IMG/VR virus record: IMGVR_UViG_3300009149_007655
DNA: 64,000 bases
Source of the DNA: a virus
Direction: 5' to 3' (one strand)
The position numbers were made by a program, and so were the translations under genes. Shown here piece after piece: positions 39,402-42,276 of the stretch; position 1 is the stretch's first letter, and every line of letters starts with the position of its first letter. The notes under the pieces are model-generated. The model saw nothing but the letters and a program-made list of their open reading frames with translations, had not been told where the DNA came from and ran no database searches.

Positions 39402-39608
39402 TTATGTTCCTTCTGTAAGAACTTGCATCTTACCTGTTGAGTCTAATGGACTTCTTACTTGTCCACTTTCAAACACACCAGATTGGTCTGCATATTCACA
39501 TGTAAATTTTCCAGGTCGATTAGGTCTTGCCCCATGACAAGAATCACTTTGGTTATACTTACAACCTCCTGAGTGAGGGCACTTCTGATTAGCTTCTAAT
39601 ATAATCAC
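39402..39608 (-). CDS. small Cys-rich protein
   Basis: 68 aa with the CPHSGGCKYNQSDSCHG cluster. Confidence 0.3.
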   Translation of the reverse strand: MIILEANQKCPHSGGCKYNQSDSCHGARPNRPGKFTCEYADQSGVFESGQVRSPLDSTGKMQVLTEGT

Positions 39609-40101
39609 TATCTACCTCCCCATTTGAATTATAAAACTCAATTTTATCCATTGAATCATTAAAAAGAACATCTGTTACAAGAACAGACATTTGCTCATAC
39701 ATCCTATCAATAACATCTTCAGGAAATTCTCCTTCAGAAACTTTTCTTCTTTCTTTACATATATCAATGGGAGTGGTCATTACAATAGCTCTGGTTTTAT
39801 AACCATATTCTTCTGCAAGACCCTTCCACATATTTATTGTAGATATGTGAGTATTTGTTTCATCAAGAACTATATTTATACCTCGTATCATTAATGCTCT
39901 AACCATAGTTTTTACTACAGCTAAAACATTAGTTTCTATAAGATGACTGAATTTATAACCAAATGCTAATCTCACATCATCTCTACTTATCACATGATAC
40001 CCATATACACCTTCGTTAAATCCTCTTTTTATGATATGGTCATTAACGAATACTGATTTACCACTTCCTGGCAGACCTACCATTATTATGAGTTCGGTCA
40101 T
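39589..40101 (-). CDS. polynucleotide 5'-kinase (T4 Pnk kinase-domain homolog, no phosphatase domain)
   Basis: P-loop GLPGSGKS, RDDVR (T4 Pnk RDDYR), DETN (SDTN), and a C-terminal segment aligning with the Pnk kinase domain (PIDICKERRK...DVIDRMYEQM versus PIDVLRSMYKSM). Confidence 0.6.
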   Translation of the reverse strand: MTELIIMVGLPGSGKSVFVNDHIIKRGFNEGVYGYHVISRDDVRLAFGYKFSHLIETNVLAVVKTMVRALMIRGINIVLDETNTHISTINMWKGLAEEYGYKTRAIVMTTPIDICKERRKVSEGEFPEDVIDRMYEQMSVLVTDVLFNDSMDKIEFYNSNGEVDSDYIRS

Positions 40102-41831
40102 ATTTCACACGTCCCAGATGCACATTGAACATCTTCGTTTGACAAACTGTTTATTGATTTATTTTCCTTCAGGTATTCAATAACCTCATCTTGTGTCACT
40201 TTATTGAGAATCTGTCCTTCACGACTTCCATCTCTATATACAGTAACTCCTTTAAGGTCATAAATATATTCAAGTAATAGCTTACTTAAATCATCCGTTG
40301 TTGATTCTTGGGGAAGATTGATTGTTTTTGATACGCTACCATCCACATATTTCTGAACTGCACATTGAATTTCAAAATGATCCTTTGGTTCCAAATCAAA
40401 ACTATCTACAAACCAATCTGGAACTTCATCTTCACTATTTAAATATTTTTCATATAATGGATGGATATACATTCTCTCACTTACTCTATCTTTTCTCATG
40501 TATGCTTTCGAGAATAATGGTTCTAGTCCACTATTACATCCAGCAACCAGAGATATAGTTCCTGTTGGAGCAATTGCCATTAATGTAGTGTTTCGAATTC
40601 CATATTGCTTAATATCCATTCTCAAGGATACAGGAAGCTTTCTTATGAATGATGCTTTAGTATATGGAATTGGATCAAAAGCAGGGAATGCTCCTTTTTC
40701 TCTGGCAATCTCAACAGATGCTTGATATGCCACATCCCTTATAAATCTCATGAGTTTTTCAAGTTCTTGAACAGATTTTTGAGACCCATATCTTATTTTC
40801 TTTGCAAATAGATAATCGGATACTCCAAGAACACCAATTCCAATTCGTCTTGATCGGTGAGCATTTATATCAATCTGTTTAATACTATACTTGTTGGTCT
40901 CAATTATATTATCTAAGAACCTGACTCCAAGTCTGATTGAATATTCTAATTTTTTCCAGTTTGTATTTACACTCCCTGTTATGAAATTTGGAAGTACAAA
41001 AGACCCCAAGTTACATACCCCATAAGGTTCCAGTGTAGTTTCACCACACGGATTGGTTCCTGTAACTGGAGCAAAATAATAAGAGTTATTTTTTTGAAAA
41101 TTATTCCAATTCAAAAGACCTGGTTCAGCACAGTTAACCATATTACTTACAATCTTATCCCAAATAACTCTTGCCTCAACTGAACCATAACTCTTTTCTC
41201 TAAATTTGAATTCCCACATACTGTTCTTTTCAACTGCCATCAAAAAATCTTCATTTATTGCAACGGAAATATTAAAACTTGATAATTTTCCATGTACCAA
41301 CTTTGCATCAATAAAATCCATTATTTCAGGATGGGATACATCAACAGTTGCTATTGCTGCAGCTCGTCTACTTCCACCACTTTCAATAGTTCTTGCAGCA
41401 GCATCGGTTGCTTCTATAAAACTTACAAGACCAGATGATGTTCCTCCCTTTCCAAGAATGTCAGTACCTTTTGGTCTTAGAGGACTGAAGTTTACTCCAA
41501 CTCCTCCTCCATCTGACCATAAAATTAAACTGTCTTTAATTAATTGACCAATTTCTTCAATGCTATCGCCCACAGGAAGATGGTAGCAATTGAATAATGA
41601 TCCTCTCGATCTACCGCTATTTCTTAGAATTCTACCCCCAGGCATAAAATCTTGTTCAAATATCATTTCATGAAATGCATCTCGATACTTACTTTGATCT
41701 ACACTTTCTGGACTAGACCCAGCAATTGCTGATCTTAGGGTGCAGTCGTACCATCCTTCATCAGGATATAAAAAATATCTACTTGATGCAATTTCTTCTG
41801 AACTTTTTGACAGTATCTTTTTTATTGTCAT
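40098..41831 (-). CDS. ribonucleotide reductase catalytic subunit, probably monomeric class II (NrdJ-like)
   Basis: Active-site NPCGE...CNLGS (TGTNPCGETTLEPYGVCNLGS). C-terminal Cys pair CASGTCEI. No adjacent radical-generating small subunit, and 577 aa. Confidence 0.75.
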   Translation of the reverse strand: MTIKKILSKSSEEIASSRYFLYPDEGWYDCTLRSAIAGSSPESVDQSKYRDAFHEMIFEQDFMPGGRILRNSGRSRGSLFNCYHLPVGDSIEEIGQLIKDSLILWSDGGGVGVNFSPLRPKGTDILGKGGTSSGLVSFIEATDAAARTIESGGSRRAAAIATVDVSHPEIMDFIDAKLVHGKLSSFNISVAINEDFLMAVEKNSMWEFKFREKSYGSVEARVIWDKIVSNMVNCAEPGLLNWNNFQKNNSYYFAPVTGTNPCGETTLEPYGVCNLGSFVLPNFITGSVNTNWKKLEYSIRLGVRFLDNIIETNKYSIKQIDINAHRSRRIGIGVLGVSDYLFAKKIRYGSQKSVQELEKLMRFIRDVAYQASVEIAREKGAFPAFDPIPYTKASFIRKLPVSLRMDIKQYGIRNTTLMAIAPTGTISLVAGCNSGLEPLFSKAYMRKDRVSERMYIHPLYEKYLNSEDEVPDWFVDSFDLEPKDHFEIQCAVQKYVDGSVSKTINLPQESTTDDLSKLLLEYIYDLKGVTVYRDGSREGQILNKVTQDEVIEYLKENKSINSLSNEDVQCASGTCEI

Positions 41832-41859
41832 TCTACCCTCCCGACTATTCTTAATTCAA

Positions 41860-42276
41860 TTATTGTACTTTCCCTTTAAATAGAAAGTACTCTCGAATAT
41901 TTGTACCTTTCTTTTTCATAACTTTTGTAGATACAAAGTGATACAAACCTTTTATTCTACTTCCTTCAAATCTCACTGCCATGTGAGCAGTACTATATTT
42001 TTCAATAGTACATGTGCCACCATCAAACTTTACCAATTTTCCTGCGCCATATCCTTCTTCAATTTTACCTACAAATAAAGCTTCTTTTTCAGAATGATCA
42101 TGAGTTTTTATTGCCAAAACTTTAGGTCCATCCTTCAATGGAACTCCTTTACGAACAGCAAACGAATCCCATAATTTTCCACTCGGTTTTCTGAATCGTA
42201 TATCTTGATGCTTTCCTGCCTTTTTTGCATCATGATCAACTACGATGAACTTTGATTTATTTGGCATTTTTGGCAT
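41860..42276 (-). CDS. LigD-type 3'-phosphoesterase (PE) domain protein, stand-alone
   Basis: FIVVDHDAKKAGKHQDIRFR...FAVRKG...HDHSEKEALF...YGAGKLV follows the LigD PE pattern (FVIQKHDATRLHYDFRLE..WAVPKG..EDHPLDY..YGAG). Confidence 0.6.
   Translation of the reverse strand: MPKMPNKSKFIVVDHDAKKAGKHQDIRFRKPSGKLWDSFAVRKGVPLKDGPKVLAIKTHDHSEKEALFVGKIEEGYGAGKLVKFDGGTCTIEKYSTAHMAVRFEGSRIKGLYHFVSTKVMKKKGTNIREYFLFKGKVQ

Follow-up and report, generated by a model that had tools for sequence, protein, structure and literature searches.

The kinase-only, Pnk-type kinase and the stand-alone LigD-type 3'-phosphoesterase (PE) that flank a ribonucleotide reductase (RNR) gene in this viral DNA are, in our estimation with a probability of about 60%, separate genes brought together by the architecture of the genome and not a dedicated pair. 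The flanking arrangement is best explained by a core collinear block next to an accessory gene that occupies a hypervariable slot. The PE is a universal core gene and the kinase an occasional add-on, and the two are therefore probably neighbours by chance. What is new here is a virus-core clade of PEs with a glutamate variant of the active site; it is not a split Pnkp. The earlier note on this DNA had described the open reading frames correctly, and the distance of approximately 1.7 kb that it gave between the two genes agrees with the 1,758 nt measured from the start of the kinase to the stop of the PE, with RNR as the sole gene between them. Its domain assignments have held up and both proteins retain catalytic residues, whereas its interpretation of the two proteins as a dedicated end-healing pair is not supported.

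The whole stretch of DNA that was analysed, hereafter the window, is 64 kb in length, and the genes of the block and its surroundings are listed in Table 1. Several of them overlap: the 3' end of the RuvC-like gene extends over the start of the PE by 37 nt, RNR and the kinase share 4 nt, and the kinase and orf68 share 20 nt. No terminator-like sites were seen on the minus strand inside the PE-RNR-kinase block, and because the three genes are tightly packed and point in the same direction they are probably co-transcribed, which for the PE and the kinase is compatible with a common pathway. RNR itself is a core gene and has no part in any end-healing function. In syntenic relatives it is found 3' of the PE (58-87% identity), and the RuvC-like gene is found 5' of the PE, either directly or with mobile genes inserted. 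Subunits resembling those of multisubunit RNA polymerases are encoded in the window as well.

Table 1 Genes of the PE-RNR-kinase block and its surroundings in the 64-kb window
Feature	Coordinates	Strand	Matches and remarks
UvsX-like recombinase	37776-38975	minus	RecA 1.7e-17; PHROG 97 UvsX-like 8.5e-47
orf133, conserved in relatives	38998-39399	minus	downstream edge of variable slot
orf68, Cys-rich, conserved in relatives	39402-39608	minus	downstream edge of variable slot
Pnk-type kinase, kinase-only, 170 aa	39589-40101	minus	accessory gene, variable slot between RNR and UvsX
RNR, large-subunit-type, 577 aa	40098-41831	minus	Ribonuc_red_lgC 3.3e-105; PHROG 84 6e-122
Stand-alone LigD-type PE, 138 aa	41860-42276	minus	Pfam LigD_N; core gene of virus group
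RuvC-like Holliday-junction resolvase, 172 aa	42240-42758	minus	PHROG 159 1.6e-23; Pfam RuvC 0.0028
gp13-like neck protein	42770-43489	minus	PHROG 18911 1e-29; Pfam Phage_T4_gp13 on relatives
FEN / 5'-3' exonuclease	43505-44653	minus	5_3_exonuc domains

The PE is a universal syntenic core gene of a large clade of uncultivated, T4-like myoviruses that is represented by contigs of 86-312 kb. It is present in all 19 IMG/VR loci that were recruited via gp13, a search in which the PE itself was not used, and it lies 3' of gp13 and the RuvC-like gene. Synteny around the PE is kept in loci L004-L012 and L014-L036 as well as in a contig of 211 kb that has been assigned to the bin of an archaeal MAG, and the PE always lies in this replication and recombination block, which is collinear in the order FEN, gp13, RuvC-like gene, PE, RNR and UvsX. 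A database of 5.8 billion proteins contains more than 129 close homologs of the PE and only eight of the kinase.

The kinase, for its part, is a lineage-restricted accessory gene in the hypervariable slot between RNR and UvsX. It is confined to three patchy sublineages (L001, L004/5, L057, L058 and L055/56), it evolves faster than its neighbours (65% versus 76-89% identity in L004), and in sister genomes the slot is occupied by other genes, including some that resemble NUMOD3 homing endonucleases. All kinase-bearing genomes of the clade carry the PE as well, but this is trivial because the PE is a core gene. Linkage between the two genes is not conserved: a kinase was not found within 10 kb of the PE in any of the 41 PE-recruited or 19 gp13-recruited IMG/VR loci, nor was a PE found within 10 kb of the kinase in any of 80 kinase-bearing viral loci. 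Since the PE is universal in the clade and the kinase occurs in few sublineages, the role of the PE is independent of the kinase.

This distribution argues against the proposal that kinase and PE constitute a functional set, a bipartite analogue of Pnkp in which the kinase phosphorylates 5'-OH ends, the PE removes 3'-phosphates or 2',3'-cyclic phosphates, and a ligase encoded elsewhere reseals RNA (tRNA) or DNA cut by a host defence nuclease. We consider such a set unlikely: the PE is core with or without the kinase. The proposal draws on the proximity and common direction of the two genes, on active sites that look intact in both proteins, and on a kinase that lacks a phosphatase domain in a window where no other phosphatase (HAD, Metallophos or 2H) was detected; the PE is consequently the sole visible 3'-healing candidate if the kinase needs a partner. 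As for the remaining components, no ligase was found in the window by a Pfam/PHROGs scan of the ORFs or by a scan for the KxDG motif, a search that covers the 64 kb of the window out of a genome that probably exceeds 100 kb, and no tRNA genes were found in the window either.

The PE is assigned to its family by a profile match to Pfam PF13298 (LigD_N) of 56.1 bits (E 4.6e-15; gathering cut-off 31.1 bits) that spans positions 2-106 of 107. In the PDB its sequence matches two archaeal PEs, 3p43 and 3p4h, and the PE of Pseudomonas aeruginosa LigD, 3n9b. The AF2 model (pLDDT 90, pTM 0.84) predicts the eight-stranded beta-barrel of the PE fold, and all seven significant Foldseek matches in the PDB are PE structures (3p43, 3n9b, 3p4h, 3n9d, 5dmp, 2lj6), with TMq ranging from 0.77 to 0.80 against the crystal structures and falling to 0.67 against the NMR model 2lj6. 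The His/Asp metal ligands, whose loss had been named beforehand as grounds for abandoning the end-healing interpretation, are retained: H15, H23 and D25 (H42, H48 and D50 in P. aeruginosa) are invariant among 32 family members, and so are the phosphate-binding residues R27 and H61 (R52 and H84). Five of the six catalytic residues are thus invariant. The sixth is the catalytic tyrosine (Y88 in P. aeruginosa, Y55 in CkoPE and Y82 in MbaPE), and at this position of the ungapped alignment the viral protein has a glutamate, E65. The position is occupied by glutamate in 30 members of the syntenic clade and by Asp, Asn, Ala or Ser in its remaining members, whereas viral PEs outside the clade carry Tyr or Trp.

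In the characterised enzymes this tyrosine positions the water nucleophile and counts most in the 3'-phosphatase (phosphomonoesterase) step; its replacement by alanine in the P. aeruginosa, Cko and Mba PEs leaves the diesterase partly intact and abolishes the monoesterase (PMC3082917). The residue most needed for 3'-phosphomonoesterase activity is the one that is a glutamate in the viral PE, and together with the lack of conserved linkage this leaves unsupported the idea that a LigD-type PE has taken the place of the Pnkp phosphatase as a non-orthologous substitute. Moreover, the monoesterase activity of the stand-alone archaeal CkoPE is feeble (PMC3258152), and activity on 2',3'-cyclic phosphates is not mentioned in the PE publications consulted, among them PMC3082917 and PMC3258152. 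Healing of 3' ends by the PE could nevertheless occur in principle. The same substitution can be taken to mean that the clade has been retuned, either to a phosphodiesterase that only resects 3'-ribonucleosides or to another phosphoester, with no 3'-phosphatase activity. The partial diesterase of the alanine mutants, the distribution of residues at position 65 and the clade-specific invariant residues H98, Y112 and H113 all fit this idea, which overlaps with our preferred reading and which, taken as an explanation of its own, seems to us improbable; a carboxylate might serve just as well to position or activate the nucleophilic water, and the fold and the other five catalytic residues are fully kept.

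Among known enzymes, the archaeal CkoPE (Candidatus Korarchaeum, 3P4H) and MbaPE (Methanosarcina barkeri, 3P43) are likewise single-domain beta-barrels of similar size (118-152 aa), to which the viral PE aligns in Foldseek with a TM of approximately 0.8-0.9 and 31-33% identity. The His-His-Asp metal ligands and the phosphate-binding Arg and His are common to all three, and like the viral PE the archaeal enzymes are neither fused to a ligase or polymerase nor accompanied by a Ku partner (PMC3082917). The viral protein differs from both by its glutamate in place of the tyrosine and, in many members of its clade, by C-terminal linear motifs that are absent from the archaeal enzymes; furthermore, it is encoded by a virus core gene within a replication and recombination block, whereas in the archaea no clustering of PE genes with those for repair is seen (PMC3082917). 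The PE of P. aeruginosa LigD (3N9B/2LJ6) has the same fold and carries out Mn2+-dependent 3'-ribonucleoside resection and 3'-phosphate removal, and by analogy the same chemistry may be expected of the viral PE, which has neither the fused ligase and PrimPol nor the N-terminal peptide of the P. aeruginosa enzyme. Ku, ligase and PrimPol gave no match in the window, nor in syntenic relatives up to 10 kb from the PE, and the PE described here does not belong to a Ku and LigD arrangement of the NHEJ type.

Several observations point to DNA as the substrate of the PE. Its gene neighbours include RuvC, FEN and UvsX, and those PEs that have been characterised heal 3' ends of DNA, with CkoPE favouring single strands (PMC3082917, PMC3258152). 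The domain fusions of viral PEs, which occur only in other, unrelated viral contigs, join the PE to DNA ligase, LigD PrimPol or PolX and never to a kinase; because these partners are DNA enzymes, the PE is likely to work on DNA and not in tRNA repair.

In sequence and predicted fold the kinase shows the hallmarks of a 5'-OH polynucleotide kinase. It matches Pfam AAA_33 (1.4e-18) and the 'polynucleotide kinase' family PHROG 505 (6e-22), the latter over positions 1-144 of 295, which correspond to the kinase half only; neither Pfam nor PHROGs reveals any trace of a phosphatase domain in its 170 residues, which offer no room for one, as the earlier note had recognised. The P-loop GLPGSGKS (GxxGxGK[ST] type) includes the invariant K15 and S16. 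It is followed by the acceptor motif D41-D-V-R44 (DxxR), in which D41 and R44 are invariant in the clade and which corresponds to D35/R38 of T4 Pnk and D38/R41 of the Clostridium thermocellum enzyme (CthPnkp), and by D80-E-T-N83, aligned with S-D-T-N of T4, in which T82 (T4 T86, Cth T80) and N83 are invariant. [quoted passage not shown] The putative lid segment C-K-E-R-R-K has an invariant R118 and a nearly invariant R119; the HMMER alignment of this pair with R122/R126 of T4 is off by one or two residues (lid arginines T4 R126, Cth R116/R120). The AF2 model (pLDDT 86.7) has CthPnk 4jt2 as its best Foldseek match (TM 0.77), and the top 13 matches comprise CthPnk, mammalian PNKP and then PSTK, with adenylate and UMP kinases ranking lower.

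T4 Pnkp (PseT, 1LTQ/1LY1) provides the best PDB sequence match of the kinase (1ly1, 7e-8), and the homology of the kinase domains extends to the P-loop and the acceptor residues, and possibly to the lid arginines. However, the viral protein lacks the C-terminal DxDxT HAD phosphatase, nothing in the analysis ties it to tRNA repair, no Rnl1 or Rnl2 was detected in the window, and a phosphatase module is neither fused to the kinase, as in PseT, nor conserved beside it. The kinase module of CthPnkp (4JT2/4MDE), the nearest structure, exemplifies a Pnk kinase paired with a non-HAD phosphoesterase, and the contrast between the HAD phosphatase of T4 and the calcineurin-type enzyme of CthPnkp is a precedent for a swap of the phosphatase (PMC3902929, PMC7824862) that lends the bipartite proposal some credit. 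A further point in its favour is that stand-alone viral kinases, which account for 42 of the 80 viral kinase loci, often adjoin separate genes for phosphoesterases and RNA ligases; as split sets of kinase, phosphoesterase and ligase recur in viruses, a split kinase/phosphoesterase design is plausible in principle. In CthPnkp and these split sets, however, the partner is a binuclear, calcineurin-type phosphoesterase (Metallophos) and never a LigD-type PE, and the kinase of the window has no calcineurin-type or RNA ligase gene nearby. Among cultured phages, the closest kinases, those of Desulfovibrio phage ProddE (gp18, 154 aa) and Clostridium phage Amboise (156 aa), are 36-42% identical and kinase-only too. 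Two PE queries gave no match in the GenBank phage collection to which both genomes belong, and since these kinases occur without a detected PE the kinase-only design needs none. If the two proteins did act together on DNA breaks, mammalian PNKP, a DNA 5'-kinase/3'-phosphatase, would be their functional analogue; its kinase domain is among the best fold matches, but it has an FHA domain and a fused HAD phosphatase that is unrelated to the PE fold.

The position of the kinase beside RNR, where its start overlaps the RNR stop, has also to be weighed as a sign that the protein is not a polynucleotide kinase but acts on nucleotides or small molecules and serves dNTP supply together with RNR. The AAA_33 superfamily does include small-molecule kinases, and the ProddE homolog, at 42% identity the closest from a cultured phage, is encoded by a gene that has a MazG-type NTP pyrophosphohydrolase on one side and NrdD, the anaerobic RNR, on the other; in the census of kinase neighbours, PRA-PH/MazG occurs in two loci and NrdD in one. 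In the same census, on the other hand, RNA ligases and Metallophos proteins are commoner than RNR; the kinase abuts UvsX in L055 and lies two genes away from RNR in L058. The invariant polynucleotide-acceptor DxxR and threonine, together with best sequence and fold matches to polynucleotide and tRNA kinases, far above NMP kinases, make a role in dNTP supply very unlikely. A further point against it is a separate, weak dNMP-kinase-like ORF at 50872-51507 of the window.

If kinase and PE are indeed independent neighbours, the PE would be a small, probably Mn2+-dependent phosphoesterase that processes 3' ends of DNA or RNA. Most likely it cleans DNA 3' ends by resecting 3'-terminal ribonucleotides and/or stripping 3'-phosphates, with E65 probably taking over from the tyrosine in positioning or activating the water nucleophile, and the cleaned ends would then prime synthesis or be ligated in recombination-dependent replication and repair. 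The kinase would most likely phosphorylate 5'-OH RNA or DNA ends left by host nucleases. In the few lineages that have both genes the PE could add the matching 3'-healing step, and cooperation between them is possible. A fuller version, in which the Glu-variant clade is an obligatory 3'-end cleaner in replication and recombination that, together with the kinase, forms a bipartite PNKP-like system in some sublineages, strikes us as rather doubtful; if true, it would represent bipartite 5'/3' healing with a phosphatase fold new to that role. The virus clade is widespread, and some of its contigs have been binned with archaeal MAGs.

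The two enzyme assignments from which the earlier note had set out, a 138-aa stand-alone LigD-type 3'-phosphoesterase (PE) and a 170-aa kinase-only Pnk-type protein, are both borne out by Pfam and PDB matches, structural models and Foldseek comparisons. The PE scores 56.1 bits against Pfam LigD_N (curated threshold 31.1), and among PDB sequences it is closest to the archaeal stand-alone enzymes MbaPE (3p43, 6e-14) and CkoPE (3p4h), followed by the PE domain of Pseudomonas LigD (3n9b). Its AlphaFold model, built with 32 homologs, has a pLDDT of 90 and retrieves only PE structures in Foldseek, at a TM of about 0.8; no PHROG family was found for it. 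A check of the metal ligands found H15, H23 and D25 invariant across the 32 aligned homologs, together with R27 and H61, and a gap-free alignment equates these five residues with H42, H48, D50, R52 and H84 of PaeLigD.

The sixth essential residue is Glu65 in the window PE, at the position of Pae Tyr88 (Cko Tyr55, Mba Tyr82). Glutamate is found here in 30 members of a clade of uncultivated T4-like viruses that share a block of FEN, gp13, RuvC-like, PE, ribonucleotide reductase (RNR) and UvsX genes; the remaining members have Asp, Asn, Ala or Ser, and the PE domains of other viral contigs retain Tyr or Trp. The tyrosine coordinates the phosphate-bound water that is the proposed nucleophile, and it is more strictly required for the 3'-phosphomonoesterase than for the 3'-phosphodiesterase step (PMC3082917). 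The former is the very activity that a replacement of the Pnkp phosphatase, the role the earlier note had given to the PE, requires. The carboxylate of a glutamate might fill the role of the tyrosine, and the natural Tyr-to-Glu change offers a ready probe of the proposed water-nucleophile mechanism.

Many PEs of the clade are extended at the C-terminus by an acidic linker plus a pair of conserved short motifs, K-x-L-[PK]-W-S and, at the very end, [RK]-I-[IV]-A-A-E-Q-L-Y-x-M-L-K, which from their sequence look like partner-tethering peptides. Homologs longer than 150 aa account for 74 of 120 (P0008-P0104); the window PE has no such extension. In a 312-kb relative (loci L033 and L156 of the same contig) the PE gene is duplicated in tandem (L033 9995-10390 and 10391-10765), and the diverged second copy has Ser at the Tyr/Glu position.

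The kinase, RNR and PE ORFs are densely packed on one strand in a window of about 32% GC, in which the coding strand switches from minus to plus at about 50.5 kb. The 3' end of the RuvC-like ORF overlaps the start of the PE ORF by 37 nt, the RNR stop and kinase start overlap by 4 nt (ATGA), and a small Cys/His-rich ORF overlaps the kinase stop by 20 nt. In most relatives, kinase-bearing or not, the latter ORF is retained upstream of the orf133-UvsX pair. A promoter and terminator scan found no minus-strand terminator-like sites in 37-45.5 kb, and since its counts for the block are at chance level it shows only that there is no obvious break. A search of GenBank phages for near-identical DNA found no match to the locus.

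Features of the PE-kinase locus and other genes of the window
Feature	Length (aa)	Position	Strand	Remarks
QueD/PTPS		1676-2083	minus	1.6e-32
N6/N4 methyltransferase-Mrr_cat nuclease fusion		2420-4060	minus	
NADAR		10703-11161	minus	1.4e-29
Major Vault Protein shoulder domain + vault repeat	838	12366-14882	minus	shoulder 7.7e-20
RNA polymerase beta-like	1363	18389-22480	minus	Rpb2_6 2e-43
RNA polymerase beta'-like	1003	22484-25495	minus	Rpb1_2 6e-27, Rpb1_5 2e-26
Cys/His-rich ORF	68	39402-39608	minus	CPHSGGC...C...C
Kinase	170	39589-40101	minus	
RNR	577	40098-41831	minus	
PE	138	41860-42276	minus	
RuvC-like	172	42240-42758	minus	precedes PE
P-loop protein	211	50872-51507	plus	T4-type DNMK 4.9e-4 (sub-threshold)
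NUDIX		56845-57903	plus	
Volactin (PF25216)	346	58403-59443	plus	6.8e-74, full length

The PE is a core syntenic gene of the virus clade. Exact-match and homolog look-ups revealed that the PE-clade loci share one gene order: Dda-like helicase, clamp-loader AAA, primase, FEN, gp13-like neck protein, RuvC-like, a variable slot and PE, then a second variable slot, RNR, a third variable slot, the small Cys-rich ORF, an ORF of about 135 aa, UvsX-like recombinase and a KH protein. The same order recurs in IMG/VR contigs of 86-312 kb and in a contig of 211 kb (L142) that binning placed in a Woesearchaeota MAG, with rubrerythrin, Q_salvage, DUF5661, HNH, NUMOD3 and Vsr-like endonuclease genes in the variable slots. 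In order to avoid circularity, loci were also recruited via the gp13-like gene alone, and the PE lay downstream of the gp13 and RuvC-like genes in all 19, three of the contigs being new relative to the PE search. Recovery of the IMG/VR PE loci required an alignment-based search; a single-sequence PE scan of IMG/VR gave no match.

The slots flanking PE and RNR are hotspots of mobile endonuclease genes (HNH, NUMOD3-like and Vsr/DUF559-like; L008-L012, L009/L011/L012), and an HNH-containing intein interrupts one RNR (L010 10518-13670). DUF5661 (PF18905) occurs as a fusion with the PE in one homolog (P0060), and in several sister viruses its gene follows PE directly or at a short distance (L006 10408-10815; L011 11034-11519; L058 3371-3754), which may reflect a functional link to this domain of unknown function.

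The kinase, by comparison, is a patchy accessory gene. It is present only in the window sublineage (L001, L004/5, L057) and in two other branches (L058 and L055/56), whose divergence equals that of about 27 kinase-less genomes, and its placement varies inside the RNR-to-UvsX slot. Close homologs in a collection of 5.8 billion proteins number 8 for the kinase and more than 129 for the PE. Compared with the related locus L004, the kinase is 65% identical and the neighbouring genes 76-89%; its GC content is native. The earlier note had read the two genes as a dedicated pair, a split Pnkp in which the PE replaces the phosphatase, and this pairing found no support, there being no recurrent linkage in either direction. 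No kinase lies within 10 kb of the PE in any of 41 PE-recruited or 19 gp13-recruited IMG/VR loci, and an HMM built from the PE alignment detected no PE domain within 10 kb of the kinase relatives at 80 IMG/VR loci.

Among the kinase ORFs of these 80 loci, 42 are stand-alone (149-207 aa) and the rest are fusions of 292-750 aa. When the two nearest ORFs on either side of 34 distinct stand-alone kinases were surveyed with Pfam (133 ORFs in total), calcineurin-type metallophosphoesterases were the commonest neighbours (Metallophos_2 in 6, Metallophos in 5), followed by RNA ligases (PF09414 in 4, Rnl1-type in 2, ligase OB domain in 3) and a single 'Swiss-army-knife RNA repair' HAD domain; few neighbours were related to RNR (NrdD in 1, MazG-like in 2). 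Split sets of kinase, phosphoesterase and RNA ligase are thus a real viral theme, in which the phosphoesterase is never a PE. The nearest cultured-phage homologs, from Desulfovibrio phage ProddE (154 aa) and Clostridium phage Amboise (156 aa), are likewise kinase-only, with no annotated phosphatase or ligase nearby; Mycobacteriophage LeBron gp74 (306 aa) contrasts with them as the classical bifunctional form. The kinase-only Pnk is an ordinary member of an already known type.

The ATGA overlap could alternatively mean that the kinase is a dNMP or nucleotide kinase serving the RNR, as could the ProddE locus (L013 5523-8438; also L063), a second, independent kinase-RNR adjacency in which the kinase gene is flanked by genes for a MazG-type NTP pyrophosphohydrolase and for NrdD, the anaerobic RNR. 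We down-weight this interpretation because the nearest folds are Pnks and the residues for a polynucleotide acceptor are invariant. The protein matches AAA_33 (1.4e-18), the kinase half only of PHROG 505 'polynucleotide kinase' and, best among PDB sequences, the T4 Pnk kinase domain. Its model (pLDDT 86.7) most resembles the Clostridium thermocellum Pnk kinase (TM 0.77), followed by mammalian PNKP and the tRNA kinase PSTK, with NMP kinases ranking well below the Pnks. Invariant or nearly so are K15/S16 of the P-loop, D41 and R44 of an Asp-x-x-Arg motif, T82-N83 and R118/R119 of the lid. The DxxR motif is common to RNA-repair Pnks, where its Asp is the general base on the 5'-OH, and Arg and Thr (T4 R38/T86; Cth R41/T80) hold the first phosphodiester of the acceptor strand (PMC3902929). 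The conservation of D41, R44 and T82 points to a polynucleotide as acceptor, or at the least to a nucleoside-3'-phosphate, rather than to a free nucleoside or NMP. The 211-aa P-loop protein, with its weak match to T4-type DNMK, may be the real dNMP kinase of this genome.

As a Pnk, the kinase would phosphorylate 5'-OH ends of RNA or DNA left by host nucleases. The ligase partner that the earlier note had expected elsewhere in the genome was sought within the window, which is only part of a genome probably larger than 100 kb: Pfam and PHROGs searches of essentially all window ORFs of at least 90 aa found no DNA or RNA ligase, HAD, Metallophos or 2H family, and a scan for the KxDG plus motif IV/V nucleotidyltransferase pattern was negative. 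The window also contains no tRNA genes, which would have hinted at a conflict over the translation apparatus. The PE is the sole visible 3'-healing candidate in the window, and the two enzymes could cooperate in lineages that have both. We nevertheless favour the reading that PE and kinase are independent genes, with a probability of about 0.6; a dedicated pair appears unlikely, as the data give it no positive support, and a 'split Pnkp' as proposed is not established. The result serves mainly as a caution, in that adjacency in a dense collinear viral genome does not amount to evidence of a common pathway, and the comparative data indicate that viral kinase-only Pnks normally pair with calcineurin-type phosphoesterases and RNA ligases.

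LigD-type PEs have been described in bacterial NHEJ and, as orphans, in archaea, where their pathway has to our knowledge never been identified. In a large virus group a PE clade now proves to be a universal core gene amid genes for a resolvase, a flap endonuclease and a recombinase, which provides the first consistent genomic context for the stand-alone family. Distant viral PEs are fused to ATP-dependent DNA ligase (L047, L050, L053), LigD-type PrimPol (L048, L052, L054), Pol beta/X polymerase (L044; relative L045) and a TFIIS zinc ribbon (L041), partners of the DNA-repair type with no kinase among them. Characterised PEs are DNA 3'-end-healing enzymes, CkoPE favouring single-stranded substrates and having feeble monoesterase activity (PMC3258152), and the word 'cyclic' is absent from the PE literature searched, including PMC3082917 and PMC3258152. 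We infer that the clade PE works at DNA 3' ends, where it would resect ribonucleotides and/or take off 3'-phosphates; this fits both the FEN, RuvC and UvsX genes around it and the DNA enzymes to which viral PE domains are fused. The resulting 3'-OH ends would serve for priming or ligation in recombination-dependent replication and repair, and the genomic context suggests a testable role in supplying such clean ends.

Searches by tblastn with the window PE and a canonical-type viral PE (L042) gave no match in 50,697 GenBank phage records, so that a cultured reference is lacking for either. A BFVD fold search with the PE model returned no significant match, and a comparative study of jumbo phages lists HAD, 2H, cRec and calcineurin phosphoesterases for RNA repair and nowhere mentions LigD (PMC7824862). 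On these grounds the virus-core, Glu-variant PE clade appears undescribed; it represents a novel variant within an enzyme family already known, in a biological setting that is new, and the seeming absence of PE from GenBank phages and BFVD implies that uncultivated viruses hold repair enzymology unseen in model phages. The sole borderline BFVD match, the unnamed 827-aa protein A0A516LT18 (E 2.3e-3, TMq 0.53), may, judging from the model comparison, be a multidomain protein resembling LigD from a virus already catalogued.

The clade may have archaeal hosts. Clade contigs have been binned into MAGs labelled Bathyarchaeota, Woesearchaeota and Heimdallarchaeaceae (L141, L142; P0037), and we rejected such binning as host evidence because it is unreliable, the 211-kb 'Woesearchaeota' contig being itself a viral genome with full synteny.

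Other genes of the window include adjacent beta- and beta'-like ORFs that look like unsplit large subunits of a multisubunit RNAP in a T4-like myovirus genome. The full-length Volactin match indicates that the virus encodes an actin-fold protein, and the vault-type gene lies in a GC-richer patch (38% against about 32%). The NADAR, QueD/PTPS, methyltransferase-Mrr_cat and NUDIX genes are likely a counter-defence or DNA-modification set, and the Q_salvage gene that adjoins the PE in sister genomes hints at 7-deazaguanine chemistry.
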